NCBI GenBank assembly: GCA_964016885.1
Contig: OZ024741.1
Coordinates: forward strand, 147,622,001-147,686,000
Source of the DNA: Eledone cirrhosa
Lineage: Eukaryota
Direction: 5' to 3'
DNA length: 64,000 nt
Position 1 is the first letter of the stretch; every line of letters begins with the position of its first letter. The notes beneath the pieces were generated by a model. It was not told the DNA's origin. It made no database searches and worked only from the letters and a program-made list of their open reading frames with translations. The position numbers and the translations under genes were made by a program. Below, one piece after another: positions 9,445-63,482 of the stretch.

Positions 9445-11725
9445 TGTAGTGACCTACATTCCACGGGCTCACATACATTCTCTGTGCGTGATTTGGCTCA
9501 GTTCAGCCAATCAGCGCCAGTAGAAGAGGATGTATCCCTACGCGCCCTGAGGAAGAAATTCCCCGCGAAGATTTGAAGAATCTCTCTCTTGTACCAGAAA
9601 CTTCGAGCCATCAACACGCATAATGTAACGGTGAAATATTGCACCCTAGCCTCGCCGGCTTAACGGCGCAATGGCACATTCCCTTTTGTAACCGCTTTTT
9701 ATCTGTAACTTCAACCATATAAGTTAACAAACATTGTTTGTACTACATAAAAAATAAACATACATTTCATCTCTAATTTCTGCTGTTGAAATCATTATTA
9801 TGTTACTCGTGTCTCAATAACTTCTGTAATCCATGCTGCTGGGATTGGCGACCTGACGGAGGGAATGTTGTAAATACAAAGATGGTAAATAGATCGAGGG
9901 ACCTTCCCTCACGTTTATGTCGACAAGATAATCCAACGAGGATACTATCACTTACCACACTGGCAACAACGACCCTTCATTCAACTACCCTGTTAAAGTG
10001 GCGACTATTCAACTTTCATACAGCTAAAGTGGCGACCACGACTAACCATCTTGCTAAAGTGGTGACTTATATTCAACAAAGAGAAACATTCCTTTCCTTT
10101 ATTGGTGACCGACGTAAGAATTTAACGCAGCCCTTCTTTTTTATTCAGTTGAACTTTTATTGCCACGTTGCCAACCTTTTAGCAACTTGCGAAAATACAA
10201 TATATTCCTTTCAAAGTTTTTTTTTTGAAGAATTGGCAGTATTTCAAAAAACTTTTCGCCACGAGGGAATTTCAAAATGGCTACCGACAGGTCCTGTCTA
10301 CAATCAACAACAACGACAGCAGCAGCGACAGCATTGTTTAACCACTGACCAAAACAGGGAATAGTGAGTGGCAGCTTCATAGCCTTACCGACGCAAACCA
10401 CCACACATCGGAAATTTCAAAACGGCTTGTAACTTTACCGACGCAACCACCATACCTTCTGTCTCGTTACCACAGGGACTCGAGAAATGGAGACAGTAGT
10501 TTTCTCACCATTATGGCGTCAGACGTGGCTGCCATGTTTGGTGACTGCTACTCTACAGAAGATTCTTTGACTTTGCTAAGGTGGCAGGACGGTAGAATGG
10601 CCACGAAAACTCACAAAAACACCATACATCTAACCCCTAACGGCATTAACAAACTTCTTTTTCAGTTTTCAGATAGAACTAGTGTCTGTACACTGGTGAT
10701 GTGTGAACTATTTGACTTTGAAAAACTTTGAACTTTTCATTGAGCAATTTCTCTGCTCCCTTAGATTGACTTTGAATTATCAGTTTGTTACATTCACATA
10801 TTTCTTTGTGGAATGCATTTACTTGTTTTGTGCTCTTTTGCTATTTGCTTGCTCATGGTTTTTGTTCATTCACATTCTTTGCTGTTTTACATGCCTGCAT
10901 ATGCACACATTTTTTTGTCACACACCAACATGTTGTTCTTGGTATATGTTCTTCAAACGTAATATTCTGTGAGTTCCTTTTCACCTGGTTGGGGTGCTGT
11001 CACATGCTAGCAGCTCACAGAGCTTAATTCACTGGATTCAAACAGGCACCGCAACACGAGAATACTAATTGCAGCTGAACTCAAACAGCTTCGCATCTCG
11101 TTGCATACTGATCGTCCATGACGGCCATCCGTCTTGTTGTTTTTGCCCGACTCGCTGGGAAAGCAACAAATTGAACTGGACTTGTCAGCATTTCGGCCAC
11201 TTCTGTGGATTCGCCCGAGTTATGGAATTTACACTGCAACCCACCTACAGATTAAACTTGCTTTTTTTTTTCTTTACAAAGCAACCAGCCATTTTTTCCT
11301 GGCTCCACAGCACATTCGACAATACATCTGGGGGGCCATCATTTTCTCGCCAGCACTGGTAAACTACCATAATAGCTTCGTTCACAGCTACTGATACAAC
11401 GCTTACCATTAACATTTAATGCAAGAACAGCAACTTCGCTCATGTCAGACTTTATCTGTTTTCTGGTAGGCCCTTGAGGGTCTCGTTTAAACTACAAAGC
11501 AGCTAGTCATTTGACAGCGGCTCAACACGGCCCGTCGCGCCTAATTTTTTTTGTTCTTGCATGAATCTTTCTGCTCAATTATTTTTTCACTGATGTGCTC
11601 TTTCAGCATTTGATCTTGCTGATTCAATAATATGTGGGTCCTTGGTTTCTTCGTTATCGATTTTCGGCTGAAAATCTGCTTTCATACAGCTAAAGTGGCG
11701 ACCACGACTAACCAACCTGCTAAAA
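9445..11725 (+). mobile_element. probable degenerate LTR-retrotransposon 5' region with several tRNA-Trp PBS-like motifs
   Basis: TGTAGT...ACTACA (9445-9747) and TGTTGTAA...TTACCACA (9866-9959) LTR-like termini; TGG(C/T)GAC motifs; ~45-bp direct repeat at 10013 and 11679; faint gag-like SPELW. Confidence 0.35.
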
Positions 11726-30772: not shown

Positions 30773-33650
30773 TGTTACTTGACATATTGGGCATAGCGAG
30801 ATGGTCAGTACACACGTCGACCGGATCTAGTGTTTGTTGTTGGCATAGAGTTTGGATTGCTGGTGGATGGGAGCACCGATGTTGGGTTAACTTGGTCTGA
30901 TGATGAGGGTTCATCCAAATCCATATGAGCTTTTTTTAGCTGACACTGACAGCATCCCTCTTTCCATTGATGTCAAAAATGCAATTCTAGGGTGTGCTTT
31001 TGAGTACTTGGTAGATACCTGAGTATAGTGGTTACAAAGGAGCTCTGATAGTGTCGTTTCTAACAAAACATATGTCAGATGGAACTTGAGTAGTGATGCT
31101 TTGAAGGCAAAGGGCAACGGATGGCAGGTTTGCCATGTAGGTCTACAGGTGATAGGTATAGTTCATTGGATGCCCGGGGTGTTGAGACTCAGGGGAAATC
31201 ATTTGCCTGGATAATACCAATGTCGTGCCATAAACCCGCTCAGCTGGCATAAAACCAAGTCCTTCTTTTACGGTGGAGTGAATTCCAAGAAGGATGAGGG
31301 GTAAGATCTCCAACCAGTTGCTGTTGTTGACATAGGCTCTGAGAGCCGATTTTAATTGCCGATTGAAACGTTCCAGCATACTGTTAGCTACAAGGTGATA
31401 AGCTGTTGTACGTGTTCAGCTACAGCCTAGGAGGTGTGTCAATTCTTTAAAAAGGTTTGATTCAAACTGGCAGCCTCTGTCCATTGTGATGGTAGGTGTG
31501 CCATAGCGCGAAATCCAATGCTGTACTAGTACCTTGACAATAGATTTGTTTATGGTGTCAGAAAGAGGAATGGCCTCAGGCCACTGGGAGAATCTGTCCA
31601 CACAGGTCAAAAGGTGAGTGCAACCCTGAGAAGGAGGCAGTGGTCCGACTATGTCGATGTGTACATGTTGGAAACGTGCATCTGGTGTTGCAAAGGTTGC
31701 CAGAGGAGTTCTGACATGATGGTGAATGTTTGCCTTCTGACACTGGACGCAATGTCTGGCCAATTCTCTGACATTCTTGTGCACACCAACCCAGACAAAC
31801 TGGGATGTTATTAATTTCAAGGTAGAGATGGCACCTGGATGCAATAAGTTGTGCAGCGCAGAAAAAAAACGAACGTCGATGCTGTAGAGGTACATAAGGG
31901 CGCGCGTGGCCCGTAGACACATCACACGAAATACCACCAGAAGTAAAAGATAGAGGGAGGAGTTTGAAAGAAAAGGAAGAAGGAAATGAAAAATTTCAGA
32001 GTTTGAGGAGCTCCCCATCCGTCTGTTGAAAAGCGGCAATGTCTCAGAGCCTGATGAAAAAGAGGTGTGCAGTGCACCCATGTGGGCACAAGGAAGAGTG
32101 TCGGCTGCAGAGTTGCCTGAACCCTTAATGTGGTGAATATCCGTAGTATACTGGGATATAAAATCCAGTTGATGCACTTCTCTAGGTGAGTGATAATCAG
32201 GCTTGGAATATAGAGCATATATGAGAGGTTATGGTCTGTGTAAATAGAAAACACAGTACCCTCTAACAAGTGCCGGAAATGTCTCACACTGAGGTACGCT
32301 TCCAAAAGTTCCTGACCAAATGAGCTGTACTTTGTTTCGGCTGGTTTGAGTCGCCTAGAGGAGAAAGAAATTGGCTGCCATACATCGTCTTCGCATTGTT
32401 GGAGGGCGCCACCGACCCCGACATCCGATGCATTGACGAACAGACAAAGCGGTGCATCAGGTTTGGGAGGAACCAACATTTTGGCCTCTGCTAAGACCCA
32501 CTTGACTCTAAAAAAACAGCCGCTTGTGCATCATCAAAAGCTGGTTCTTCCGTTTGCAGTGCCATAGGATGTCTGTTAGCGGCTGGAGAAACTCTGCACA
32601 GCGAGGAATGAACCGGTAGTAAAATATTTATGAGGCCAAGGAACTCACATACTTTCCTCGGGGACGTAGGAGTGGGAAAATCTAAAATAGACTTAACTTT
32701 GTCGTGGAGGAGGCGGATTCCTTGTTTGTCAATGTGGTGTCCCAGAAAATCAAGGGAAGAAACACTAAAAAGGCATTTGCCGGGGTTGATGATGACACCA
32801 AACTGAGAAAAACGCTTTCCTCTTCCCCATGAGATGTGCTGGCTACCAGCATATCATCAATATACGTGTAGACGAAGGGTAAACCACGTACTACTGTGTC
32901 AATAAAATGCTGGAAGATTGATGCAGCATTGCGTAAACCGAATGGCATTCTAAGAAACTCGAAGAGGCCGAAAGGAGTTGTAATAGCCGTTTTTGGAATG
33001 TCATCAGGTTCAATAGGAATTTGGTTGTATGCCCACACGAGGTCGATTTTTGAAAAGACACTAGCTCCATGTAGGGTAGCAGAGAAATCCTGTATGTGAT
33101 GTACCAGGTACTTATTAGGTTTTGTGCGTGTGTTAAGAAACCGATAGTCTCCACACGGTTGCCAGTCACCCACAGATTTCTTGGGAACCATGTGAAGGGG
33201 GAAGACCAACTGCTACTGGATGGATGAACAATACCCAGTTCCAGCATATGATCAAACTCTGCTTTAGCGATCTTAGCATGGTCAGGAGCGAATCGCCGTG
33301 GCTGAGAAGAAACCGGAGGGTACTCAGTTACGAGATGATGCATAACACTGTGGGTCACAAACTGACTGTTAAAAATTGGGCACAAGATATCAAGGTGCCT
33401 GTGCAGGATAGCGTCATATCTGCCGGACTGCACTGGATTAAAAAAAACAGGGCTGAGGGAGGGCGCCTTAGTGCTGAAACTGTGAACATTGAGGCCCATG
33501 GTGGAATCAATCAGTCTGTTGTGTTTAACATCCACCAGGAGACAGAAATTGTGTAAAAAAATCCACTCCTAGGATCGGAGTCGGCAACTTGGTGATGAAA
33601 AAACTCACTGGAAAACTCGACAGAGCCCAAGATCAAGATTTAAGGTCTTT
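30773..33650 (-). pseudogene. pol: Ty3/Gypsy pol remnant (protease C-half, RT, RNase H, integrase), frameshifted
   Basis: [46 protein letters not shown]; VNASDVGVGGAL, ELLEAYL; H..HPG..C.QC, HIDIVGPLP, MDRG.QFES, ERFNRQLK; terminal TRSGR. Confidence 0.92.
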
Positions 33651-34161: not shown

Positions 34162-35548
34162 TCATCATCATCATCATCATCAACGTTTAACGTCCGTGTT
34201 CCACGCTTGCATGGGTTTGAACGGGGGTTTTCCCACTTGAGGCAAGAGTGATTGTTTTGCTCGCATAGGACTGTCTGGCAGGTTTTCTACTGTTGGATGC
34301 CCTTCCTAACACCAACCACATTTACAGTGTGGGTCTGGGAGGTTTTTACCGTGTTGCCTACACGGCCACATTACAGCGTGGACTGTGTGTTTTTTTGTCG
34401 TGACACCTCCACGATCTCATTTGTTTCGGCCTGGATGGTGTGGCACCAACATAACTTTACATAGAAGGGGGCGGTGTGGATGGGGTGGAGGTGGGGGTGG
34501 TGGGACGGGGGTGTATTTTGTTAGAGATGCCTACTGACTGTAGTAGATTTTACTTTGTATTTAGGTAAGGCGGGTCTTCTCTATTACTGAGTACCGCCAA
34601 AGGTCTCGGTCCAGTGACATTGTCTTGGTATGGTGTAAGTGTGGGAGGTCGGAGTTTATCAGCTCGTCCCAGGTTTTTCTGGGTCTGCCTATTCCGTGGC
34701 TACCGTCTATCTTTATTGCCCTGCACTTTGTTATACAGCTATCGTCCTTCATGCGCATCACGTGACCATACCAACGTAGCCTTCTCTCGAGTAAACAACA
34801 TCTGATCCCTCTTATTTCTAATTTTTTCCTTAGTTCGTTTATGCTTTGTCGTTCACGTATATTACTATTACACATCCAGCGGAGCATGCAAGCTTCGTTT
34901 CTCTCTAGTCTGCGTATATCCTCTGCGCACAATGCCCAGGTCTCACTGCCATGCAACATTGCTGTTTGTATGCAGGCATCGTACAACCTGCCTTTCATTT
35001 TTAGGGAGAACCCTTTAGCGGCTAATAGTGGTATAAGCTCTCTGAACTTTTTCCACCCAGTTCTGACTCTAGCTACTGTACTTTCAGAGCACCCTCCCCC
35101 ACTGCTGATTTTGTCACCCAGGTAACGGAAGCTGTCCACTATTTCTATAGAACCCTCTGCGCAGTTGAAAGAGCTAGTATTTAGTGGGCACTTGCTGCTG
35201 CTTATTGCCCCAGAACACCGGCCACATGTAAAATCTATGTTCTTAGTTAGCTTACCTGTGATCCCACTACATCTTTTATGCACCCAAACTTTGCATTTGG
35301 GACACAAAATGGAATTTCTACCTACGCCTTTCCTACACTCTGCGCATGGCCACTTCCCAGAGGGGACCGCCGCCTTATTTTCTTTCTTACAAACTAGAAC
35401 TTTAGTCTTAGCCAGGTTAATTTTAAGGCCTTTTGATTCTAGGCCGTGCTTCCATGTTTGGAATTTCTTCTCTAGCTCGGCCATTGATTCAGCTATGAGC
35501 GTTAGATCATCTGCATATAGGAGTTCCCATGGGCAGCCGGTCTTGATA
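34162..35548 (-). mobile_element. RTE-clade LINE, 5'-truncated (RT C-half with inserted PHD-like Cys-rich segment; ORF 34561-35548)
   Basis: ELLYADDL, FRYLG, GSETW, RRLRWYGHV, GRPRKTW; 3' UTR and (GAT)n tail at 34162. Confidence 0.92.
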
Positions 35549-35654
35549 CTAACAGAAAATCGCACTCGGGCGGTTTTCTGCTAGCATGTGTAGTGTGCAT
35601 ATTGGTATTATACGCAAATATATATGCATATAGATATATGTAAATTGACAATAT

Positions 35655-45767: not shown

Positions 45768-45771
45768 TTAT

Positions 45772-46375
45772 TTATTAAAATAACAGATTAAAGTTTAAGC
45801 AAAGAATCGCTGCTTTCACCCTTAACGGGATCTTCTGAAACTAACAAAGTCAATCTGTAAACGCAGAACTGGATATTTCAAAAAACGTTGCATTTATGTG
45901 GTTTTGTCTTTGCGTGCTATTGTTCTCCACGCTCCACATATGACGTATTATCTTCGTTTTTTTCGTTCATTGCCAGAGAACGTCTCTATGCATCACCTAC
46001 GAGAACATTAGTCTACGACCTCTTTTATACCATAAACGTGGTTCTGTCTTTGCGCGTAATTGTTTTTCACCGCTCCTATTAATGACGTATTATATTCGTT
46101 TTTTCCCGTTCTTTGCCAGGGAACGTTTCCACGAACCAAAGTATCGTCTTCCTGTCTTCCTCCGGTTGCAACGTTTTTTTGAAATATCCAGTTCTGCGTT
46201 TACAGATTGACTTTGTTAGTTTCAGAAGATCCCGTTAAGGGTGAAAGCAGCGATTCTTTGCTTAAACTTTAATCTGTTATTTTAATAAATATTTGCTCTA
46301 CGGTTCTTATATATTTGATATATATTTATCCTTATCGAACCCTCTTTGGATTTTAGTCTTCAAATTTATTATTAT

Positions 46376-46380
<5 letters not shown>
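45772..46380. mobile_element. PLE terminal-repeat fragment with inverted 5' copy
   Basis: Arms 45772-45892 / 46167-46291; the body matches 54564-54957; HHR-like agttt-CAGAAGA-t-ccc..ggg-t-GAAA-gca..tgc-TT-aaact. Confidence 0.8.
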
Positions 46381-46473
<93 letters not shown>

Positions 46474-46627
46474 ATGTGTGTGTGTGTGTGTGTGTAGGAG
46501 GTGAGTTTTATTGTAGTACAATAAAGCAATGCAGATATCGGATAAGTAGCACTCAACAGTTTGTAGGACTGGAGTATAAAAAATATAAGATCAAAAGATG
46601 GTTAAAAGAGTTCCATGTATTTTATTA

Positions 46628-48790
46628 ACTAACATTATAAAAAATCTTAAATTCAAGCGAAACCCTTACAGAGGACAAGAGCACCTTGTAAATCTCAAGA
46701 ATACGATTTTAAACCTAAATTCCTCAAAAAATGTTTTAGTACACTCCGACAAAACCAATAATTTATATGGTATATCTAAGGATAACTATTACAACCTTAT
46801 CCTTAAAGAACTTAGGAAGAAATATCGCAAAACTAACCATGATAATTTAGAATCCATAAACTTTGAAGCTTCTGAGATTATGTCAAAACTTGGCATCGAA
46901 AAAAAGACCGAACCATTTCTCCCAAGAACTCCGAGGATAAATCTCAAGGATCACAAAAACAACTTTCGTACTGAACTACCTGTTAGACTAATCACCCCCT
47001 CTAAATCAGATCTGGGGGTTGTTAGCAAAGCCATCTTGAATAGAATTATCCCACAGGTTCGTTCTAATTGCTCTACTTCTAACTTAAATTTATGGTTTGG
47101 TACTTCTGAAGTAATTGGCTGGTTCAACAAATTGAATAAGAAAAACAAACAAAAATGTATTCAATTTGATATTGCCAGCTACTATTCTTCTATTTCGCCC
47201 ACACTTCTCAACAATGCTCTATCTTTCGCTTATAAATATTCAGACATCACCACAGATGAACTTCACATCATTCTCACCGCACGTAAAACCATCTTAGAAT
47301 TCAACAATGAATACTGGACCAGAGCTGATACCTCCAACAACTTTGACATTACAATGGGTGCATCCGATTCATCCCAATTGACAGATTTAATTGGTATCTT
47401 TATTTTGAACTCTTTGAATCGGAAAATTCCTCAACTTCGCGGTGGAATTTATCGGGACGATGGACTTTTCACTATCTGAAATTGCAACATAGTTAACCTT
47501 AATATTATTAAGAACAATATACGTGATTTCTTTAACCAACATAACTTAAAAATTGAATTTGATAACAACATCAAACTAGCTAACTTCTTGGATATATCTC
47601 TTAATCTTGACACTGGCCTATATTACCCTTACCATAAAAACAATGAGAATCTAAATTATGTTAATTTTAAATATAACCACCCCACTAACATTAAAAATGC
47701 TATAGTTAGTAATATTGGAAAAAGAATATCAAACCTATCATCTAATAAAAACATCTTTGAATCTAACGCCAATTACTATAATAACGCGCTTTCTAAAGCC
47801 GGTTATCCTGATAAAATCAAATACAGTAAAGAAACCAATCCTAGAAGATCTTACAGTAAAATAATTAATCATGATCATTCCAATAACTTTAATAAAAGAC
47901 CTAGATACAAAAATATATTCTGGTATAATGCTCCTTTCTCCATCTCTATTAATAATAATATTCCTAAATTATTCTTTAGTGCCTTAAATAAATGCTTCCC
48001 TCCCTCACATATCTATAGTAAAATATTTAACAAACATACTATAAAATTTTCCTCTTCGACCTCCTCCAACATCTCCAACATTATCTCTAAACACAACAAT
48101 AAAATACTAAATACTAAATTTCTTCCTTCCAACACTGAATATCATAGTAATAGCAATAGTACTCCCGACGTCATTGTTAACTCTAGGCTAATTTCTGCAA
48201 ACCCAAATACGACGTCAAACGCAACTTCGTTAAATGTTCTTAATCCCAATCTAAATCAAGAAACTATTATTCCTATCGTAAATAACTTCTCCAATCCAAT
48301 TCCTCCTATAGATAACACTAGGTCACTTGTTAATAACTCTGTTAATTTCTCTAATCGCAATTGTAATTGCCCTGTTAAAAATAAATGTCCTCTCAACAAC
48401 CATTGTCTTGAAAAAAACTTAATCTATGAATGTAAAGTTATAACTGACACCAATTCCTTTACCTATTTTGGCTCCACTTCCACCTCCTTTAAAGCTCGTC
48501 TTTATAATCATCATTCGTCTTTTAAATACCAACTTAAAAGAACCAACACGGCACTCTCAGAACACATATGGTCCTTGAAAGACAAAAATATTAACTATAA
48601 CATCTCTTGGAGGAAAGTTTGTTCTGCCTCTCCATACTTGAATGCCTCTCTATCCAAAACATGTAATCTCTGTTTATGTGAGAAATTTACCATTATATCT
48701 AATTTAGATTCTATAATAAATAGACGCACTGACTTATTTTCTCTCTGCTTGCATACATTCCACAGAACATTCCATAAAGTATACAGCTAA
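46628..48790 (+). pseudogene. PLE reverse transcriptase + GIY-YIG endonuclease with a single in-frame TGA at 47477
   Basis: HSDKTNN, LKDHK, QFDIASYY, ITMGAS, YRDDG, FLDI, CNC.....CPL...C, IYEC...YFGST, FKARLYNH, CNLCLCEK; ORFs 46598 and 47588 share a frame. Confidence 0.9.
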
Positions 48791-50501: not shown

Positions 50502-50618
50502 TTGAAGTTTCCGTTGAAAATTGAAAAAGTCATAGGAGTGAAGAGTGCTCTATGTAAGTACCAGAGCAAAATTTAATGTATAATAAACAATACAATATAA
50601 TTACCTCATTACCAGAGG

Positions 50619-50668
<50 letters not shown>

Positions 50669-50672
<4 letters not shown>

Positions 50673-51640
50673 AATGATTTTAGTGCAACTAATTAGAGAA
50701 AGGGTCAAATTAGATGAGATGCAGTTTGGTTTTGTGCCTGGGAAAAATACAACAGATACCCTCTTCTTAGTGAGAGAACTACAAGAGAGGTTCTTAGAGA
50801 AGAGTAAGCCACTATACTTACCTTTTGTTGACCTAGAGAAGGCCTTTGATAGGGTACTCCGATCTGTCATCTGGTGGTCCCTAAGGAAACTAGGTGTTGA
50901 GGAATGGCTTGTGAGGACAGTGCAAACTTTGTACAGAGGTACTGTCAGTAAAGTCAGAGTAGGAATGGAGTTTAGTGAGGAATTCCAGATACAAGTAGGA
51001 GTACATCAAGGTTCGGTCCTCAGCCTGTTCTTGTTCATTATAGTCCTCCAAGCCATAATAGAGGAGTGTAAGACTGGCTGCCCATGGGAACTTCTCTATG
51101 CTGACGATCTGGTTCTTATAGCAGAATCAGTAGAGGAGCTAGAGAATAAATTCTGGTTATGGAAACAGCAGCTGGAGTCAAGAGGACTGAAAGTGAATCA
51201 AGCTAAGACAAAAGTGTTGATAAGTAGAAAAGAGGACAAAACTCTGATTCCATCAGGGAAATGGCCATGTTCAATATGTAGAAAAGGAGCTAGCATAAAT
51301 TCTATAAAATGTACACAATGCAGATCTTGGGTACACAAGAGATGTAGTGGGATAGCAGGCAAACTAACAGGTAGGGAAAACTATGTATGCAGTAGATGCA
51401 CAGGGAAATTTGACAGTAGAAGTCGCATTGATAGACACATTGTTCAAATGCAGGTGGGTTCTATGGAAGTTGTTGATAGCTTCCGGTACCTAGGTGATCA
51501 GATTAGCATGGGAGGGGGAGGGTGTTCCGAGGCCATAGTATCTAGAATAAGGACGGGTTGGAAGAAGTTTAGGGAGCTGCTTCCTCTGTTGACAAAGAAG
51601 GGTTTCTCCCTGCATACGAAAGGCTGGTTTTATGATGCTA
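50669..51640 (+). pseudogene. RTE-clade LINE RT fragment (related to the 34561 family)
   Basis: QFGFVPGK, FVDLEKAFDRV, GVHQGSVLS, LLYADDL, FRYLG. Confidence 0.92.
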
Positions 51641-51825
51641 ATACTATCTATTGGTTGCAACTCCAGGTAGAAGGACCAATGTGAAATAAAGTGTCTTGCC
51701 CAAGGGCATAACGCCTCTCCCGGTCCGTAAATCAAACTCACAACCTCATGATGGTGAATCCAATTCTCTAACCACTTAGCCACGCGCCTTCACTATACGA
51801 GTATATACATATATACATGCGCGCG

Positions 51826-52205: not shown

Positions 52206-52391
52206 TTTTAAGATATATATGTGTGTGTATTATATATATAATACACACAGAGAATTCTGTGTCTAAAATTACGAGAGTAGAGAATACCACAATTGTTTTA
52301 TATATTTAATCTGAATCATATGTAAGATATAAAAAGTTTTTCATATGATATAAACATTTTTTCATATACAGACCGTACCAATAACTATTTC

Positions 52392-52478
52392 ATCTCTCGG
52401 ACAGATTAGAGATTTAATCTGTTTCGCCCTGAAAATTGTTTGTAACAGATAATCCCTAGACTTTCGTCAGCGAGAGAT
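52392..52478 (-). ncRNA. type I hammerhead ribozyme (GUC site)
   Basis: atctctcg-CTGACGA-aa-gtct...gggc-GAAA-cagatta.aatctc.taatctg-TC-cgagagat. Confidence 0.78.
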
Positions 52479-52937
52479 AAGATCAAATGAAAACAAAATA
52501 CATTTAACTACAATTCACGGGAATGAATAGAATAATACACCTCGTGCGTTGGGCGTTATACGTGGTGTGAGTGGGTATGCTAGAAATAATAGCCTTATTA
52601 CACTCAACTTATAAGCTCACCTAGTTAGGGAGCCGAAATACAAATAAAATACAGAGTAACTAACTCATATTGATACCCTGCAATTAACAAGCTCAAAGTA
52701 TAAATACTGAGCGTTATATAAAAAGATTTATATCTTACGTATGATTCAGATTAAATATATAAAACAATTGTGGTATTCTCTACCCTCGTAATTTTAGATA
52801 CAGAATTCTCTGTGTTTATTTCTACATATATTATTATATAGCATACCCACTCACACCACGTATAACGTCCAACGCACGAGGTGTATTATTCATTCCCGTG
52901 AATTGTAGTTAAATGTGTTTTGTTTTCATTTGATCTT

Positions 52938-53026
52938 ATCTCTCGCTGACGAAAGCCTAGGGATTATCTGTTACAAACACAATTTTCAGGGCGAAACAGA
53001 TTAAATTTCTAATCTATCCGAGAGAT
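52938..53026 (+). ncRNA. second copy of the same hammerhead (G-to-A change in stem III next to the cleavage site)
   Basis: atctctcg-CTGACGA-aa-gcct...gggc-GAAA-cagatta..taatcta-TC-cgagagat. Confidence 0.7.
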
Positions 53027-53270
53027 GAAATAGTTATTGGTACGGTCTGTATATGAAACAATTTTTATATCTTATGAACATTTTTTTATATCTTACATAT
53101 GATTCAGATTAAATATATAAAATAATTTTGGTATTCTCTACCCTCGTAATTTTAGACACAAAATTCTTTGTGTTTATTTCTACATATATTATTATATAAT
53201 ACTCAGTATTTATACTTTGAGCTTGTTAATTGCAGGGTATTAATATGAGTTAATAACTCTGTATTTTATT

Positions 53271-53313
<43 letters not shown>

Positions 53314-54045: not shown

Positions 54046-54110
54046 TATATATATATATTATAAATGTAAACATGTAAGTATGTTTTTGAAACGGTGCGCA
54101 AGTTTGAAAA

Positions 54111-54287
54111 TTAGAAATTAGAAATTATAAGCTTTCACCGTATTTTAGACTAAAGAAATTTCTAGCCTGATGGTGGGGTTTATAACGGCAACACTCATCT
54201 TTTTCCATTTCTCCGAGGGTTATAAACCCCACCATCAGGCTAGAAATTTCTTTAGTCTAAAATACGGTGAAAGCTTATAATTTCTAA

Positions 54288-54294
<7 letters not shown>
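54111..54294. repeat. ~76-bp perfect inverted repeat with ~32-nt spacer abutting (TA)n; probable PLE-end fold-back
   Basis: ttagaaattagaaattataagc...gtttataac and its reverse complement; only a degenerate HHR trace (aaGATGA...gccgt/acggt-GAAA). Confidence 0.75.
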
Positions 54295-54328
<34 letters not shown>

Positions 54329-54333
<5 letters not shown>

Positions 54334-54957
54334 ATAATAATAAAATTGAAGACTAAAATCCAAAACATATTTATATGTGCGTGGTTTTGTATACCTATCG
54401 TAAGGTTTTGCGTATGCTTGTGTATGTACGTATCTGTTTGCGTGTATGTATTTATTTGTTTCTATTACTTCTGTATTGTATTTATTTACTTTGTTCTTAA
54501 CTCTGTAGCGGAGATTCATTCGGTCTCCTAGTTAGAATTTTAGTCTACAACTTCCGCTATACCATTTACGTGGTTTTGTCTTTGCGTGCTATTGTTCTCC
54601 ACGCTCCACATATGACTTATTATCTTCGTTTTTTCGTTCATTGCCAGAGAACGTCTCTATGCACCACTTAGAGAACATTAGTCTACGACCTCTTTTATAC
54701 CATAAGCGTGGTTCTGTCTTTGCGCGTAATTGTTTTTCCCCGCTCCTATTAATGACGTATTATTCGTTTTTTCCCGTTCTTTGCCAGCGAACGTCACCAT
54801 GAACCAAAGTATCGTCTTCCTGTCTTCCTCCGGTTGCAACGTTTTTTGAAATATCCAGTTCTGCGTTTACAGATTGACTTTGTTAGTTTCAGAAGATCCC
54901 GTTAAGGGTGAAAGCAGCGATTCTTTGCTTAAACTTTAATCTGTTATATTAATAAAT
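54329..54957 (+). mobile_element. PLE terminal repeat (family of 45772-46380) with a short inverted 5' tail copy
   Basis: 54564-54957 is nearly identical to 45891-46291; 54329-54365 is the reverse complement of ~46345-46381. Confidence 0.8.
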
Positions 54958-55508
54958 ATATATATATATATATATACAACACCACCACCAGCTCTCTCAC
55001 TCTCTATTCTATTCTCCTTCTCTGTCTCCCTCTCTCTCTATGTTTCTCTTTCAATCTATTCTCTCACAACCACTATCTCTTTCTCTCTCTGTTTATGAAG
55101 GTGTGGGTATGGTGTGGTGTGCGGTGGCCGGAAGCTGGGGATTGCTCGACCGGAAGAGTGCTTGACCGGAAGGGTGCTTGGCCGGAAGGGTGCTCGACCG
55201 GAAGGACCAGCAGGTCGGCCTCTTTCTCTGGCGGTGATCTGGAACGTGGTGGACGCGAGTTTTGCAGCTCCGAGTTAACGAGTTGGATTGGACGCACGTG
55301 GAAGAGGAGAAACCAGCCATGGGATTTAGCAGCGACTATGAAAAGTGGTAAGTGAAGTAGCTTTTTCTAACCACAAGCTATTTCGGCACTGGAAACTGAG
55401 ATCTGATCAAAGAAAAAAAAAAAAAAACTTTCTCGAAAATAAAGCTACTGGAAAAACAGAGAGGAGTCTGTCATTTTTTTGATTACGTACCACAAGACAA
55501 ATTAGGAT

Positions 55509-56270
55509 ATGGCGATGAGACTACGGACAAGCGAAGCGATTAGGGCATTTACCGGTGAAGGCGATGTTGTCGCTTGGTTGCGAAAAGTCCGGCTGGTCGA
55601 AAGCTTACAGAAGATAGAAGATGTGGCTGGCCTCACGGCACTGTACCTCGAGGGGGACGCGTTGGTGCTCTTCCTTGAAATGGATGAACACAGCCAAAGG
55701 GATGCGCAAAAGATTGAGAGGCGCATGATGGAAGCGTTCGCGGAGGGACCGTTAGCCGCTTTTGCTAAGCTGGCAAGAATTAGATGGAACGGTGAACGCG
55801 TTGACATTTTCGCAGCGGAAATACGGCGATTGGTCATGTTGGCTGGATATCAGGTGGAATGCGAACGCACGGTGCGGTTGGCGTTCATAAATGGATTTCC
55901 AGACGACATAGCGGTGAAACTACAGCAAGTCCCGAGTTACAAAGAAATGGAGATGCGTGCACTGGTGGAGCAAGCCCGCATCATAGCAGAAGATTCCAAG
56001 AAGAGTGTCGCAGCGATAGCAACTACAGAGGCCCAAGACAGCTGGCAGCGAAATGGTGAAAGGGAGGCAACCACGGCACGCGGTCGCCCGCGAATGTTTA
56101 AAGGTTGCTGTTTTAGGTGCCAGGGCCCGCACATGGCGAGAGACTGTAGAGAGTCAAGGCCGGAAATAATATGCTACCGGTGTAAGCGACGAGGCCACAT
56201 TGCTACTAACTGCGACCAGGGAAACGATCCAAGGGGAACTACTGCGCCAGTAGTTTCCCCTTACGAGTAG
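55509..56270 (+). CDS. gag: Gag with two CCHC-type zinc knuckles
   Basis: 253-aa open ORF; CFRCQGPHMARDC and CYRCKRRGHIATNC. Confidence 0.9.
   Translation: MAMRLRTSEAIRAFTGEGDVVAWLRKVRLVESLQKIEDVAGLTALYLEGDALVLFLEMDEHSQRDAQKIERRMMEAFAEGPLAAFAKLARIRWNGERVDIFAAEIRRLVMLAGYQVECERTVRLAFINGFPDDIAVKLQQVPSYKEMEMRALVEQARIIAEDSKKSVAAIATTEAQDSWQRNGEREATTARGRPRMFKGCCFRCQGPHMARDCRESRPEIICYRCKRRGHIATNCDQGNDPRGTTAPVVSPYE
56219..56260 (+). promoter_or_regulatory. -1 ribosomal frameshift signal (G_GGA_AAC plus hairpin)
   Basis: Heptamer 56219-56225 in the gag frame; stem ggggaactactg-cgc-cagtagtttcccc 7 nt downstream; the -1 frame is open into ALVDTGC. Confidence 0.8.
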
Positions 56271-59056
56271 AGGCGCTGCCCGTGTTGGAAGTCTTCGTGA
56301 GGGGAAAGCCACAGCGAGCCCTCGTGGACACGGGCTGTACGACGACAGTGGTGACCGCGGGGGTGGGTGGCGCAGAGGTGGAGAGGGAAGAGCAGCGTAA
56401 GGGCAGTCGACGGTAGGAAAATTGAATGCAGAGGTCGCAGCGAGGTGGAGATGGCGGTACGGGGAAGGAAAATAAGGCTCTCTGCCATCGTAGTCGACAA
56501 TGTGGTGGATGGGATCGGCGTGGTTATGGGCATGGACGCAATTGGCCGTCTAGGAGGCGTCACAGTGAACAACGTCGGTGTGTCGTTTGGCGGCGCAGCA
56601 TCGGTATGCGCTGTGAGTACGCGACAGGAGAACCAGAAGGCCCGCGAGGAGAAATACCCCGCTTACACTGTGCAGGACAAAGACTTCAAGGCCGTGTTCG
56701 ATGGGTAGCGATGGGTTGTTGAGTGGTACTGGAAGGGAGAACCACCAACACTGAAGACCTAAGTGGGCTGCTATCAACACACATTGAAGGGAGACATTAG
56801 GGGCGAGTTCGAGCGAGAGGTAGAGAGCTGGATTGAGGAGGGCATACTGCTGCCCTGGAAAGAGGAGGTGAAGTGCAGAGTATTGCCGTTAATGGCAGTG
56901 GCGCAACCCACGAAGAACAAGGTGAGGCCGGTACTGGACTTTCGGGACCTGAACGAGCACGTGTCATGCCACACCGGTGGCGTGGTCACGGATGTCTGTG
57001 GAGTGGAGACGCATGACGGGGGGTTCCGCAATCGTAGATCTAAGGTCGGCATACTTGCAATTGCATATAGATGAGAAGCTCTGGCAGTATCAGCTGGTCA
57101 GGTATAAGGGCCGGACATATTGCCTGACCAGGCTCGGTTTCGGGCAGAGCTCCGCACCAAAGATCAAGGCGGCGGTCATCAAGACTATTCTGGGAAAGGC
57201 CGACAAGATGAAGAGGGCCACTAATTCCTACATTGACGACATCCTAGTGGACGAGTCTGTAGTGTCGGCGGCGGAGGTCATAGCCATTTACAGGGGTATG
57301 GACTGGCTGCGAGGCCGTCAGAAGCGTTGGAGGGAGGAGCCGCGCTGGGACTTAGGCTACGGCGAGACAGGACGGGCGTCTTAGTATTCCAGAGGGGAAA
57401 TGAAGTTCCAGACCTGGGCCCAAGTATGAGTAGGCAGGAGCTTTTCTCGGTGTGTGGAAAGTTGGTGCGTCACTACCCGATTGCTGGGTGGCTCCGGACG
57501 GCATGCAGCTATGTCAAGAGACGAGCAGGAGGGGTGACTTGGAGTGACAGAGTGGGAGAGAGGACGGTGGCCATGATGCAGGAGAGGGTCAAGGCCGACG
57601 ACACAGTGCGGGGACGCTGGTATGTTCCCAAATCGCAGAGCGGGACCGTATGGTGCGATGCCAGCAGCATAGCGCTGGGTGTCACGTTGGAGTTAGGAGG
57701 TGCTGAGATCAAGGATGCAGCCTGGCTTAGGAAGAAGGACGACTGCAACCACATCAATGTGGCCGAGCTGGAGACGGTGTTGAGAGGGGTGAACCTCGCC
57801 CTGAGGTGGGGACTGCGTACCATCAAGACACGCACCGACTCGGCTACTGTACTCGGATGGGTGAGATCAGTGCTCACCAGTGAGAAGAGAGTGCGAACGA
57901 GAGATGCAGCGGAGATGCTGATAAAGCGCCGCCCGGGAACTTTAGGAGAGCTGGCCACCGAGTTCGAATTGAGGCTGAGCATAATTTTCGTGCCCTCAGA
58001 GAAAAATAGGGCGGACGTCTTAACCAGAGTGAAGAAAGCCTGGATGGAAGCGCCGGAGGAGGTAGAAGAGGAGATAGCTGCCGTGTGTCGGCTGACCGAG
58101 TCGGATATGAAAGGGTTGCATAACATGCACCGCATGGGAGTGGATAGGACTCTGTTCCTAGCCAGGAGAATCGACTCGGAAGTTAACAGACACAGTGTTC
58201 AAAGGGTGGTTAGAGGCTGCGTCCGATGTCAGTCCATTGATCCCGCCCCGGGTGTGCACGAAACAGGAAGTCTCCCGGTGGATCGCGACTGGAAGTGATT
58301 GGCGGTGGATGTAACACACTACCGACAGGGAACGTACCTCTTGATGGTCGACTGTGGACCGAGACGGATGGCGATATGGAGGGAGATGAAGACTGGAACG
58401 GCCGAGGAAATCATGCGGACGTTGAGAGAGGTGTTCTTGGAGCGGGGCTCTGTGGACGAACTGCTGATGGACAACAGCGCAGCATTCCGCTCGGAGGCGC
58501 TGAGGGAGATGCTCGATGGATGGAAGGTGGACCGTTTCTTCAGAGCAGCGTACAGGCCGAGCGGAATGGAATGGTGGAGCGACACCACCGGACGATCAAA
58601 GCAATGGCGGAGCGGGGCCACATCTCACCAATGGAAGCGGTGTTCTGGTACAACATGTCCCCTCGGGTGGGACAGGTTGAGGAATCGGTGCCACACAGAG
58701 CAGTATTCAGATACGAGTGGCGGCACCCGTGCACGCCACCACAACGGCCAGTGGGGAGAGAGAATGCATTCGTGCAGGTGGGCGAAGAAGTCTGGGTTAA
58801 TCCCCCAGATGCACGTTGCACATCTCAATGGGGAAGGGGAACGGTGCCGGCCGTAAATTCCCAGAACAATGTGTCCGTGGACGGAGTACCACGTCATGTC
58901 CTGGATGTCCGTAGAATTACTGTGTCAACGGACTCCGAGGAGGAGGAAACCCAAAGTGCTGCCCCAACACTGCGGAGATCGCAAAGAAGTCGCAAACCAC
59001 CAACCTGGACAGCAGACTTTCAAATGCAGAAGGACGAGGGGGAAATTGATCCTTGA
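56219..59056 (+). pseudogene. pol: Gypsy pol (PR-RT-RH-IN), disrupted by several frameshifts and stops
   Basis: ALVDTGC; VRPVLDFRDLN; VDLRSAYLQ; YIDDIL; VWCDASS; AVDVTH, MDNSAAF, NGMVER. Confidence 0.92.
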
Positions 59057-59534: not shown

Positions 59535-59715
59535 CTAGACTACCCGTGACCCGTTGGGTCATGTTCACTTAAAAATAATTTTTAAATAATTAAAATATAC
59601 ACAAAATGTATATAATGTAAAATGACATTGGAAAGCCAATATATATATATACGTGTATGTGTGTGTGTATATGTACGTGTGTGTATATGTATGTGTATAT
59701 GTACGTGTATATGTA
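59535..59715 (-). mobile_element. 3' end of a second Helitron of the 53313 family
   Basis: CTAG at 59535; hairpin tgaccc-gtt-gggtca (59547-59561); about 110 bp homologous to 53313-53420. Confidence 0.75.
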
Positions 59716-59747
59716 CTTCGTATTATTAATTTTTCTTAATATTAATC

Positions 59748-59795
59748 AACATTTGAAAAGATGGCTTTTGCAGACCCATCGAAACCGGTCATTTT
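59748..59795 (+). ncRNA. type I hammerhead with U3-A8 core (GUC site)
   Basis: aacat-TTGAAAA-gatgg-cttttgcagac-ccatc-GAAA-ccgg-TC-atttt; stem I has one mismatch. Confidence 0.65.
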
Positions 59796-59964
59796 TTATA
59801 CCCTTTATTATTTCCTTACCTTATAAAATTATGTTTTTTCACAAAAAAGTATTCTGTCTCTTATATATTCCATGTGCCATTACCAACCTCAATTTTCTCT
59901 ATAACCTTCGTTTTGTGTAGAAAATTACACTTTTCATATATACTAACCTACGCAAATCCGGAAA

Positions 59965-61236
59965 ATGGCACTGGAACAAGACAACACAACTTCAAACTCC
60001 AATATAAATGAGGAAATCCTGAAAATCCTAAAAGAGATAAATGGAAAACTCACCATTCTGACAAAAAAACAGGATATACCCCAAACCACCACACCGACTG
60101 ACAACCAAATTTATTTAAACGTTCAAAACGTATGCAACTCCATCGAAAAACTTATGAATACCAACACAGAACAAACGACATTGCTCCATATCAAAAACCA
60201 AATGGGACACCTCTGGAAAAAACATCTAAAAACCAGAAAATTTACTTTCTGGAATATGATAAAAAACCTCAACAAAGCTGGAATTTACCAAAAATGGATT
60301 AACTCAACACCGATAGTTTTACCACGTAAATTCCAAATAAAGCATATTACAAACGAACCTGAACCAGAAAGAAAACTCCGTGAACAAATGTCACTCAACA
60401 GGATAAACATGGAAATAGAACTCCTAAAATTAAGGGCCACCTCAAACAAGCAAGAGTATAAGGATACTGATAAAAATATGGAGGAAGAATGCACTAAAAA
60501 GGCCGAGGGAATAACCCTACAAAATTTAATCAAATCGTGGAAACAGGACTGCGAGAATGCAGAAACTATTTCCCTTAAACGGTGGGAAAAATCCGAAAAC
60601 TGGTTCCTCAAATATGAAGAAGACTTTAAAAGGACGCACCAAACAGGTAACCCCTTTATAAAGCATTTGAACATAACAAGAACTACAACAGACACATTTA
60701 CACCACCAAACCCAACACACACTAACCACAGGCACATCCCCCACCAACACAAACCAAATACGGCCAACTACACCAAAAGAAACACACCCAACCACCACAA
60801 CACAGGTTTCCGTAGAAATGCCCCCTACATAAACCAACGACGAAATAACATAGATCCAACTCACAACACACACACCACATTCCTCAGAAGAAATTCACCC
60901 AGACCACTTGAAATCACAACAGAACTTACCCACAACCACACCAGACATCACCCTCAATCCAACAAAAGACAACCCCCCAACCTCAACACTCTGTACCACA
61001 GAAATAACGCACCCAGACCACATGAACCAACAACAGAACCCTTGCTCATCAACAACCACAACACATACCACCCCCACCATCACATTCACCCTCATGAAAC
61101 AAGAAGCTACAGACCCACACGCAACAGACCAACAAAATATAATCACACACAAAACTACATTCCTTTTTTAGGGAAAAGCCTGAAATCCCAGGATACTCGA
61201 TGCCCCCCCCCCCCCCTCAGGAGAAACCAAAAATAA
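59965..61236 (+). CDS. PLE ORF1, 423 aa: coiled-coil-like N half, His/Asn/Arg/Pro-rich disordered C half
   Basis: Long ATG-started ORF with heptad-like EEILKILKEINGKL and NMEIELLKLRA segments, directly upstream of the RT ORF. Confidence 0.75.
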   Translation: MALEQDNTTSNSNINEEILKILKEINGKLTILTKKQDIPQTTTPTDNQIYLNVQNVCNSIEKLMNTNTEQTTLLHIKNQMGHLWKKHLKTRKFTFWNMIKNLNKAGIYQKWINSTPIVLPRKFQIKHITNEPEPERKLREQMSLNRINMEIELLKLRATSNKQEYKDTDKNMEEECTKKAEGITLQNLIKSWKQDCENAETISLKRWEKSENWFLKYEEDFKRTHQTGNPFIKHLNITRTTTDTFTPPNPTHTNHRHIPHQHKPNTANYTKRNTPNHHNTGFRRNAPYINQRRNNIDPTHNTHTTFLRRNSPRPLEITTELTHNHTRHHPQSNKRQPPNLNTLYHRNNAPRPHEPTTEPLLINNHNTYHPHHHIHPHETRSYRPTRNRPTKYNHTQNYIPFLGKSLKSQDTRCPPPPLRRNQK

Positions 61237-63482
61237 TCAACCTCTCAAAGACACCTCTAACCAACACACAAATCAACATTTTAAGTAAGGGCCTGAAATT
61301 TACACCTACACCACGTAAACCAAACTTCCCCGAAATGAAGGATGACATCATGGAATACTGCCGAAAGCTGCGATTAACGGAATTCTTCCACAACGACACC
61401 AACACTGAAGACGAATCACTGGTTAGAAATAAAAGCAATTTCTGCCCACAAAATGGAAGAAATAAAGCACTGGACACGTACTGCGAACACATCACCAACT
61501 TTCCCTATGAAAAAATTACAAATAAACACACGAAATCAAACCTATCTACACACGAATGGGAAGAATTATTCACACTTAGAAACAACCCTGAGATAACTAT
61601 CAAAGAAGCCGATAAAGGCAGTACTGTTGTCATTATGAATACGGACTACTATAGGACCCTCGCACTTAACATTTTAGAAAACAACACATACTATGAAAAA
61701 ACAGAAAACTACAAACACACCAAAACAATGGGGAACCTTTTGACCTTACTGAATAAATACCGCAACAGCTTAACCACAAAAGAGTTTAACTATATAAGCC
61801 ACTTCAAATGCAATACAAGCTCTTTTTACGGCTTACCGAAACTCCACAAATGTAAACCCATAAACGATGCATGTGACACCTCAACCAACAATTACATTGA
61901 ACTAACACCACCAGAAGACCTAAAACTCAGGCCAATTATAGCAGGCCCTACATGTGAAACCCACAGACTTAGCAACTTTCTGGACATCCTACTGAAACCC
62001 TTTCTACAACATATACAGAGCTACATACGAGATGACCTTGACATGCTGAAACACCTCCCTAAAACAGTAAGTGCAAATACAATTCTTGTCTCCTTTGACG
62101 TAATAAACCTCTACACAAACATACCTCACAGCTATGGAATAACAGCAGTCCAATACTGGCTTAACACACACCCATCAGAAATACCGACACGCATCAACAC
62201 AGATTTTATCACTGACGGACTCCGCTTTATCCTACAAAATAACTACTTCACATTCAATGGTTCAACATACAGACAAGTATCAGGTACGGCAATGGGCACG
62301 AAAGTAGCACCCACATATGCCAACCTAGTCATGGGATTCCATGAACAACAAATATACAGTCAGTCCCTTCTCTTATTTGGAGACTCTTTCCACACACACC
62401 TCAAAGCCAATTGGAAAAGATATCTAGACGACTGCTTTATCCTATGGCAAGAAGACATGAACTCACTTACTACGTTTAAAAACATGATAAACAACATAGA
62501 TAATAACATACAATTCACAATGGAATCCAATCCTAAGGAATTAGCCTTCTTGGATATTCTCATCTCTGTAATAGACGGGAAATTAGATACAGATATATTC
62601 TATAAACCCACAGATTCCAAGCAATACCTCTTTTTCACATCAAGTCACCCAAAACATACAAAACTTAACATTCCTTACAATTTGGCCAAACGTATATGTA
62701 CCATAGTATCAGATCCATCTAAACGGGAGCAAAGACTAAAGGAACTAAAAGACACCCTTATCTTAAGAGCCTTTCCACTTGAAATAATCAACAATGGAAT
62801 AGACAGGGAAAAACACCTAAATCCCCATCAACTTAACAATCCAAAACAGAAAACCACACTCAACACCCTGCCATATGTATCCACTTTCAACCCCAGAAAT
62901 ACCGAAATGTTTGATCACCTACAGAAAAACCTCCCCATCCTACTTAAAGATGTAAAAATGAAGTCTATTCTTGAAACACACAAGATCCTTAAAAGTAAAG
63001 GACAACCCAAATCACTTAAACGCATTCTCACTGGACCAAATATACCCAAACCAATCCTCAACCCTACAGTTACCAAATGTGGTAGAACAAACTGTGGAAC
63101 GTGCCTCTACCTCACTGAAGGACAAACATTTACATTCAAAGATGGCCAAACATTTACAGTAAAAAACAATTTCACCTGCAACTCGGAGAACTTGATTTAC
63201 GCAATAACTTGCGGTGGGTGCAAACACAACTACATAGGACAGACGGGCACCTCATTACGCAAAAGAATGACCATCCACCGCCAACAAATCCGGGACGCTA
63301 ACACAAGAAAAATCCCCTTGAGCAGCCATATTGCGAACTGCGCAGGAATGACACTACCCAACTTTAAAATCTTCCCCTTCTACAAGTGCTCAGATTCGTT
63401 CACACAGCAACAAAGAATAAACAAAGAAAATCTATTCCTTAACAAATTTAAACCAAAACTAAACGGGTTATCACCCCAATAG
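61200..63482 (+). CDS. PLE reverse transcriptase - GIY-YIG endonuclease (760 aa, open)
   Basis: LSKGLKFTPTP, ADKGS, FYGLPKLHK, LRPII, SFDVINLYTNIP, GTAMGT, RYLDD, FLDI, CGRTNCGTC linker, LIYAITC..C..YIGQT, R...H. Confidence 0.95.
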   Translation: MPPPPPQEKPKIINLSKTPLTNTQINILSKGLKFTPTPRKPNFPEMKDDIMEYCRKLRLTEFFHNDTNTEDESLVRNKSNFCPQNGRNKALDTYCEHITNFPYEKITNKHTKSNLSTHEWEELFTLRNNPEITIKEADKGSTVVIMNTDYYRTLALNILENNTYYEKTENYKHTKTMGNLLTLLNKYRNSLTTKEFNYISHFKCNTSSFYGLPKLHKCKPINDACDTSTNNYIELTPPEDLKLRPIIAGPTCETHRLSNFLDILLKPFLQHIQSYIRDDLDMLKHLPKTVSANTILVSFDVINLYTNIPHSYGITAVQYWLNTHPSEIPTRINTDFITDGLRFILQNNYFTFNGSTYRQVSGTAMGTKVAPTYANLVMGFHEQQIYSQSLLLFGDSFHTHLKANWKRYLDDCFILWQEDMNSLTTFKNMINNIDNNIQFTMESNPKELAFLDILISVIDGKLDTDIFYKPTDSKQYLFFTSSHPKHTKLNIPYNLAKRICTIVSDPSKREQRLKELKDTLILRAFPLEIINNGIDREKHLNPHQLNNPKQKTTLNTLPYVSTFNPRNTEMFDHLQKNLPILLKDVKMKSILETHKILKSKGQPKSLKRILTGPNIPKPILNPTVTKCGRTNCGTCLYLTEGQTFTFKDGQTFTVKNNFTCNSENLIYAITCGGCKHNYIGQTGTSLRKRMTIHRQQIRDANTRKIPLSSHIANCAGMTLPNFKIFPFYKCSDSFTQQQRINKENLFLNKFKPKLNGLSPQ

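Follow-up and report, generated by a model that had tools for sequence, protein, structure and literature searches.

The element at positions 52228 to 53275 of the window, by which we mean the whole 64,000-nt stretch of Eledone cirrhosa contig OZ024741.1 analyzed here, belongs to a dispersed family of non-coding units of ~480 to 495 nt with a type I hammerhead ribozyme inside. Copies are inserted into (TA)n microsatellites as head-to-head partial tandems, and we consider it quite probable that the family is a nonautonomous Penelope-like element (PLE), in other words a non-LTR retrozyme, whose copies are made in trans by a PLE protein of the Hydra clade.

Anatomy of the window copy

Self-BLAST and block mapping reproduced the four sense blocks (Y, X, Z, and W) of a preliminary description of this DNA, and the duplicated blocks proved 91 to 95% alike. 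That description had placed the element at 52244 to 53275; its right end stands, but the left start lies ~16 nt further left, at 52228. Arm 1 (52228 to 52722, minus strand) is one whole unit, Z-W-Y-X, composed of Z (52638 to 52719, an internal copy of the tail), W (52581 to 52639, immediately 3′ of the tail end), Y (52340 to 52580), and X (52228 to 52332). It is 5′ truncated at the inversion junction, and its terminus, inside TA/TG-rich DNA, is the tail-less (X) end. Arm 2 (52727 to 53275, plus strand) reads X|Y-X-Z, with a first copy of X at 52728 to 52835, Y at 52841 to 53085, a second copy of X at 53086 to 53193, and Z at 53194 to 53275; this last block is the terminal 82-nt tail, so that the arm terminates at the tail (Z) end. 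The (TA)n target microsatellite occupies 53274 to 53311. Multiple template switches had been proposed, and two are visible in the sequence: the head-to-head inversion junction (52715 to 52727), which has short AT microhomology, and a skip from X to Y on the plus strand at a TATTATT microhomology (52835 to 52841), where Z-W (~141 nt) is absent. This skip is private to the window locus (1/202 loci). The element has a GC content of 29.5%, and the longest ATG ORF on either strand is 19 amino acids (aa), in keeping with the earlier statement that it has no coding capacity. The blocks of this copy were covered by two contig sets of unrecorded kind, which revealed neither RNA ends nor a parent element.

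A cyclic block order recurs across the genome

One 18-mer taken from Z has 317 exact occurrences in the 3.0-Gb genome (reversed control, 0 occurrences); allowing for divergence, we estimate about a thousand copies in total. Each DNA search gave 1,503 to 2,122 first-look candidates, of which the best 40 were scored each time, and 202 distinct loci were mapped after removal of same-place repeats and segmental duplicates. Because the majority of these loci were selected by score against parts of the unit, end pairing was recounted in a less biased subset of 89 loci, those containing the first 100 exact matches to this 18-mer.

Across 161 loci, the block after W was Y in 112 of 113 cases, and the block before it was Z in 102 of 113, the other 11 being truncated. 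Since both adjacencies recur across loci, the cyclic order Y-X-Z-W is real, as the preliminary description had deduced from the two strands of this single copy. Two observations were named there that would have spoken for another origin: a Z-W-Y adjacency exclusive to the window locus, which is not what the census gave, and W-Y preceded elsewhere by a PLE ORF with no tandem copies, whereas none of the 202 loci has a co-oriented PLE ORF upstream. The idea of a non-coding, hammerhead-bearing, retrozyme-like family is supported.

The family comprises at least three subfamilies. Between two of them, Z is the most conserved block (93%), the helix III side of the hammerhead is 90% identical, and the 5′ part of X and the middle of Y fall to 72% and 66%, respectively. 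Divergence is ~4 to 5% among repeats of one insertion versus ~16% between loci. In many copies (for example, L018, 2175 to 2265), a hydrophobic frame of 29 codons starts with an ATG where X meets Z and runs through Z into W; in the window copy this ATG reads ACG or ATA.

The hammerhead is conserved in its core and long in helix III

The minus arm holds an intact type I hammerhead (52390 to 52480), with C3 at 52470, G12 at 52425, and GUC cleavage predicted after 52400. It was the only match to a type I descriptor in the 64-kb window, whereas 100 dinucleotide shuffles of the window gave 0 matches on both strands; an Rfam search of the window returned nothing at the gathering score. Helix I has 8 to 10 bp, helix II is weak, and helix III has 8 bp with a 6-nt loop. 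The plus-strand hammerhead (52936 to 53028; C3 at 52946) is decayed and failed the descriptor: AUC replaces GUC (53016), which breaks the 15.2-16.2 pair. The looped 8-bp stem III of the preliminary description is confirmed, but its GUC site exists only in the minus copy. With the minus hammerhead as its sole intact one, the window copy is probably dead; a copy with a single sound hammerhead would be unable to release a monomer by itself.

Among 51 copies, every core position of the hammerhead was kept in 44 to 51, and N7 was variable (C in 19, G in 29, U in 3). Variation at N7 only implies selection on catalysis across sublineages. In 43 core-intact copies among 65, helix II is 3 to 4 bp with a loop of ~29 nt, and A9 is followed by extra bases (2 in 24 copies, 3 in 19). 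The weak helix II and the extra core bases count against cleavage as a monomer, which appears doubtful. In these 43 copies the hammerhead fold lies a median of 3.9 kcal/mol above the minimum free energy (MFE) structure (6.3 kcal/mol in the window copy). We considered whether loop II is a built-in off-switch that pairs with helix III and rejected this idea, as shuffled loops gave an equal gap (3.9 versus 3.5 kcal/mol shuffled; 22/43 copies exceed their own shuffled mean). The 8-bp helix III sets the unit apart from non-LTR retrozymes, most metazoan type I hammerheads having a helix III of 1 to 2 bp; long helices are described as typical of fungal and protist PLE hammerheads (PMC4209133). In the sister families introduced below, the base of helix III is retained, its interior differs, and helix I is fully different (by eye).

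Circular and linear templates

A circular RNA template is plausible, with the balance close to even, and the same cyclic order would arise from a short partial-tandem linear transcript. The long tandem array that had also been put forward as the template finds no support in these loci: an arm contains at most two complete hammerheads, a state found in 4/202 loci (2/89 in the 18-mer subset), L055 among the loci with two, and never in the window copy, and arrays stay below two full units. A serious contender, which we slightly disfavor, is PLE mobilization from a template that is always a linear, uncut partial-tandem transcript of a few master loci, with no circle; the hammerhead would then only trim or be gated by protein. 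No arm with three hammerheads exists in the 202 loci, and a dimer query matched nothing longer than itself among the best 40 of 2,122 candidates. The weak helix II and extra core bases point the same way. In vitro, the anole Poseidon element uses unprocessed RNA and hammerhead mutants still insert (PMC11167929), and 8/9 Xenopus dimers are reported as uncleaved (bioRxiv 10.64898/2026.07.22.740005).

Other data fit a linear template less well. The median arm length is 404 nt, but 67/186 arms exceed 500 nt net of SINE sequence even though sources with two hammerheads are rare, and several subfamilies each make arms of more than one unit; if copying were linear and truncating, with nothing else at work, such arms should wear away. 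Within an arm, tandem units diverge by a median of 4.1% (n = 21), much as opposite arms do (4.6%; n = 46), compared to ~16% for other loci, and the restriction of core variation to N7 implies selection on catalysis. In addition, there is an excess of 5′ ends immediately 3′ of the cleavage site (18 ends in 18 nt versus 6.8 expected); however, this interval was chosen post hoc, a denser 6-nt interval is located inside Z, and the excess may come from RT stalling at helix I instead. Ends exactly at the cleavage site were not significantly enriched (5 versus 2.2 expected; P = 0.07). The monomer folds modestly better than its shuffles (z = −2.9).

Insertions pair one tail end with one tail-less end

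Sense 3′ ends fall at two fixed positions, the X end and the Z end, and are followed by (TA)n: (TA)4 stands after 83/91 Z ends and 51/69 X ends, and 165/174 Z ends without W enter TA/TG repeats. Head-to-head pairs were found at 134/202 loci (59/89 in the 18-mer subset). Pairing of the ends was strict. The 134 two-arm loci comprised 101 X/Z, 1 X/X, and 0 Z/Z pairs, with one or both ends unclassified in the other 32, and the recount on the 59 pairs of the 18-mer subset gave 45 X/Z, 0 X/X, 0 Z/Z, and 14 unclassified. PLEs are described as having this layout, in which a partial tandem is joined to an inverted truncated copy and a tail stands at one end (PMC8557442, PMC3846280), and Frangieh et al. 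(2024, PMC11167929) showed that two RT start sites delimit the tail. Because the family matches this layout, we identify Z as the tail. It measures 82 nt in the unit and 79 to 90 nt, hairpin to hairpin, across the families that share its hairpins. As a positive control, the autonomous family C of the same genome has the same two ends and a ~60-nt tail. Insertion in both orientations, as reported in the preliminary description, was observed, and the layout is the ordinary inverted-plus-tail signature of PLEs.

The inverted arm could instead arise if a single cDNA or an antisense template primed itself or folded back, as in the model of PMC3846280, and some near-palindromic junctions whose arms start almost together (L008, L204, L212, and L219) have the expected appearance. 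Nevertheless, we judge this origin unlikely: the tail-less arm is the longer one in 19/54 pairs and the tail arm consists of Z alone in 15/79, so often neither arm contains the other and fold-back on one cDNA fails. Moreover, one arm can derive from a wholly different PLE family. Two separately primed cDNAs remain our preferred source of the two arms.

A likely Hydra-type mobilizer: paired hairpins and chimeras

Both ends of the unit lie directly 5′ of a GCTC…GAGC hairpin. On the minus strand of the window copy, hairpin 1 (52691 to 52712) follows the X end directly, where the tail starts, and hairpin 2 (52615 to 52633) lies 5 to 6 nt beyond the tail end on its 3′ side. Both ends are followed by GCTC in three subfamilies of the unit, in the autonomous family B32, and in two sister families (S1 and S3), against a chance background of about 0.0017 per end for a motif that was noticed after the fact; in families A and C it was absent at the single end visible. 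As the GCTC/GAGC stem is invariant, it offers no covariation.

In B32, two ends (4 and 4 among 20 loci) bound a tail of ~90 nt, and GCTC with a GAGC partner lies within a few bases of each, although hairpin 1 does not form in the MFE structure. Natural copies combine RWR, DKT, CNCRNRVDC, and CxxC motifs with a C-terminal GIY-YIG and (TA)n insertion. Set beside the Hydra features given in section 11 of PMC8557442 (RWK-type motif, DKT, CxCX5C, and C-terminal GIY-YIG), these motifs place B32 as a putative Hydra-clade PLE.

A search for hairpin 2 with a different continuation gave 285 matches (control, 0), and 30 fetched loci fell into three further families (S1, S2, and S3) without BLAST similarity to the unit. 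Because these families were retrieved via hairpin 2, only hairpin 1 counts as independent in them; it is present in S1 and S3, and in S2 just its 3′ half was seen. S1, the largest, has a period of ~515 nt and, in most copies, a hammerhead ~180 nt downstream. The S1 hammerhead (L370 to L397) is a canonical-looking type I with a 5-bp helix III, and two are present in L387. S2 (L369, L383, L384, L394, and L205) and S3 (L372 and L398) are likewise non-coding, measure ~500 nt, and share the hairpin signal. Since the motif pair marks both ends in a PLE with Hydra motifs and in sister units, a Hydra-type enzyme is reasonably likely to be the mobilizer. Hairpin 2 is a likely RT docking signal.

An autonomous parent with a similar pLTR was absent from the 202 loci, and an ORF-bearing copy was found neither with a query from the third subfamily nor among 89 motif-picked loci. 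Block-level matches to the unit were likewise absent from families A (30 loci), C (30 loci), and B32 (20 loci); pLTR similarity consists of the short end motifs common to B32, in a sample of three PLE families of many. The preliminary description had called the unit a second, unrelated retrozyme-like family, which is true of its sequence but not of its end signals: these are common to B32, two non-coding copies of which lie in the window.

Direct joins to PLEs were also observed. Two same-strand, TA-free chimeras unite the unit with a CxCX5C-type PLE ORF (L032, with B32, and L303). In head-to-head chimeras, again without a TA run at the join, the unit is paired with a Hydra-like EN (L024), relatives of family A (L055 and, through a SINE, L039), family C (L122), or an unassigned hammerhead-bearing end (L003). 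Because the head-to-head joins include non-Hydra PLEs (L055, L039, and L122), the chimeras single out no clade; insertions of two families suggest cross-family co-insertion or template jumps. Movement of a SINE-like element by an APE-type LINE (e.g., RTE), or satellite or foldback amplification at the DNA level, is very improbable and already largely refuted, for although RTE-type LINE fragments and an abundant SINE occur in the window and flanks, the unit itself ends in neither poly(A) nor a simple repeat and has no terminal inverted repeats or long arrays. Moreover, asymmetry of the tail and a pair of internal start sites are characteristic of PLEs, and the shared motifs and chimeras indicate PLEs.

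We propose that a source copy with two hammerheads would be transcribed and that its RNA would, with roughly equal probability, be used uncut or be cleaved into a monomer that is then circularized by ligation. A PLE protein, putatively of Hydra type, would dock on both GCTC…GAGC hairpins and cut both strands of a (TA)n site. Reverse transcription would be primed twice, with one start at the tail end and the other at the tail-less end, which lies 82 nt upstream, and the two 5′-truncated cDNAs would be joined by microhomology.

A SINE hot spot at the tail start

Block V, found at the tail start of some copies, is a ~185-nt tRNA-type SINE that is abundant elsewhere and has an ATTAT target; we take it to have an RTE partner and a Nin/Deu-type core. 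Its membership in a longer unit was rejected, since it is truncated differently at each of the two junctions in a single array, which marks it as an independent SINE. In the 89-locus sample, the SINE occupied 36/89 resolved junctions, 35 in antisense (26 further junctions were truncated too early for scoring), and the hot spot corresponds to the 5′ base of hairpin 1 in other copies. In the flanks, by comparison, this SINE was present at 30/1,773 ATTAT sites. The site is used even where the X side is replaced by other DNA; this, together with the differing truncations between array junctions, indicates that the Z side sets it. We also rejected the idea that hot-spot SINEs lack target duplications (18/42 have at least 10 nt, versus 46/106). 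One reading of the hot spot is a PLE nick at the tail boundary, and the other is a strong site preference of the SINE's own endonuclease. The SINE also re-inserts into its own target duplication, forming tandem runs (L064, L072, L079, L084, L087, and L327) with up to about 14 partial copies in L072.

Taken to its furthest, the model would make the paired hairpins a Hydra docking code, used by at least four unrelated-looking families of ~500-nt hammerhead circles in this one genome, with a dimeric enzyme using each site of a single circular RNA once per insertion and the SINE exploiting the tail-start nick. We regard this full version as tentative and, as a whole, rather unlikely.

Comparison with known systems

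The unit falls under the sequence-level definition of a non-LTR retrozyme and appears to work like a nonautonomous PLE. With retrozymes (Cervera and de la Pena 2020, PMC7229834; Li, Clavereau and Pollet 2026, bioRxiv 10.64898/2026.07.22.740005) it shares a type I hammerhead in a short, non-coding repeat of <45% GC, and at least two consecutive complete hammerheads occur in the family (4/202 loci), though not in the window copy. With nonautonomous PLEs it shares an inverted 5′-truncated copy, a tail at one end, and an AT-rich or microsatellite target. Like the non-LTR retrozymes of PMC7229834, it is a short low-GC repeat without LTR, PBS, or PPT, and PLEs co-occur. Animal retrozymes have been proposed as nonautonomous PLE derivatives, and the retrozyme-PLE link in general is already in print. 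In contrast to those retrozymes, which form dimers to 60- to 300-mers, the unit forms dispersed partial tandems of less than two units with inverted arms, and it allows a candidate mobilizer clade and cis signals to be named.

EN+ Hydra-clade PLEs (Craig et al. 2021, PMC8557442), whose architecture is also treated by Arkhipova et al. 2013 (PMC3846280), resemble the unit in their partial tandem with an inverted 5′-truncated copy, in the tail that one end may carry, in the (TA)n target, and in the hammerhead within the repeat, and Hydra-type B32 additionally has both end motifs. The unit differs from the clade in lacking an ORF, in its 82-nt tail versus the 30 to 40 bp described in PMC8557442, and in the absence of pLTR-wide similarity to the autonomous families examined (A, C, and B32). 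In Poseidon PAc of Anolis (PMC11167929), the tail likewise lies between two internal sites where the RT starts, extension takes place on both target strands, targets are AT rich, and the protein is predicted to be dimeric. Unlike in the unit, however, PAc starts lie in an AC-rich stem-loop inside the ORF and are used without strand preference, whereas the unit uses each site once per insertion, 5′ of a GCTC hairpin. Chlamys MRC1-type elements are also described as non-coding PLE derivatives with pLTRs and head-to-tail copies (PMC8557442), but they are green algal, belong to an N-terminal-EN clade, have no canonical hammerhead, and resemble their partners at the 3′ end, where the unit shares short motifs only.

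In the open-access literature searched, we found no description of this family, the paired hairpins, a counted strict end pairing, or the SINE hot spot; repeat databases such as Repbase and Dfam and the supplements of PMC8557442 may contain these families. Ribozymes are absent from the main text of an Octopus repeat annotation (PMC13282606). Two questions are open in the literature: which RT moves animal retrozymes, and how PLEs select two starts and build insertions with a tail and an inverted copy. For these, the family offers a candidate clade for the enzyme, an RNA signal made of two hairpins, and a strict rule of one site per end on a template of ~490 nt. Tools for RNA-templated insertion would also benefit from so small a template for an RT related to telomerase. 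Should the hairpins prove irrelevant, the family would be an ordinary PLE-derived repeat with an unusual hammerhead.

Other elements in the window

The two B32 copies in the window are non-coding, head-to-head pLTR insertions (45769 to 46381 and about 54311 to 54959), each of which meets (TA)n with a tail on one side and without it on the other; they possibly correspond to the other retrozyme-like family of the preliminary description. Their hammerhead core reads CAGAAGA instead of CTGAAGA. A further Hydra-type PLE ORF (46589 to 48790, plus strand) has DKT, CxCX5C, and one internal stop and is 43% identical to B32 over part of the RT.

Family A (59947 to 63482 in the window) is represented by an autonomous, very young PLE (59712 to 63482, plus strand) with an RT, a GIY-YIG domain, and a CX4CxxC linker. 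It has 147 scored copies at 98% protein identity, of 24,042 candidates. The ORF of the window copy is split at 61143 to 61236, and the 3′ pLTR lies beyond the window (L091, about 2630 to 2850) and has a minimal hammerhead. CTGANGA…GAAA motifs resembling minimal PLE hammerheads occur at 9547, 12118 (minus strand), 27772, and 39579 and fail the long-helix descriptor.

The window also contains fragments of RTE/CR1-type LINEs with a PHD-like finger and two decayed fragments of Ty3/Gypsy-type LTR elements (34561 to 35580 and 50587 to 51684; 31416 to 33568; 55506 to 59056). Finally, perfect palindromic insertions between (TA)n runs were seen at 54110 to 54295 (77-bp arms) and in L131, L208, L353, and L373; such small palindromic insertions near these elements may be stub-sized PLE ends.
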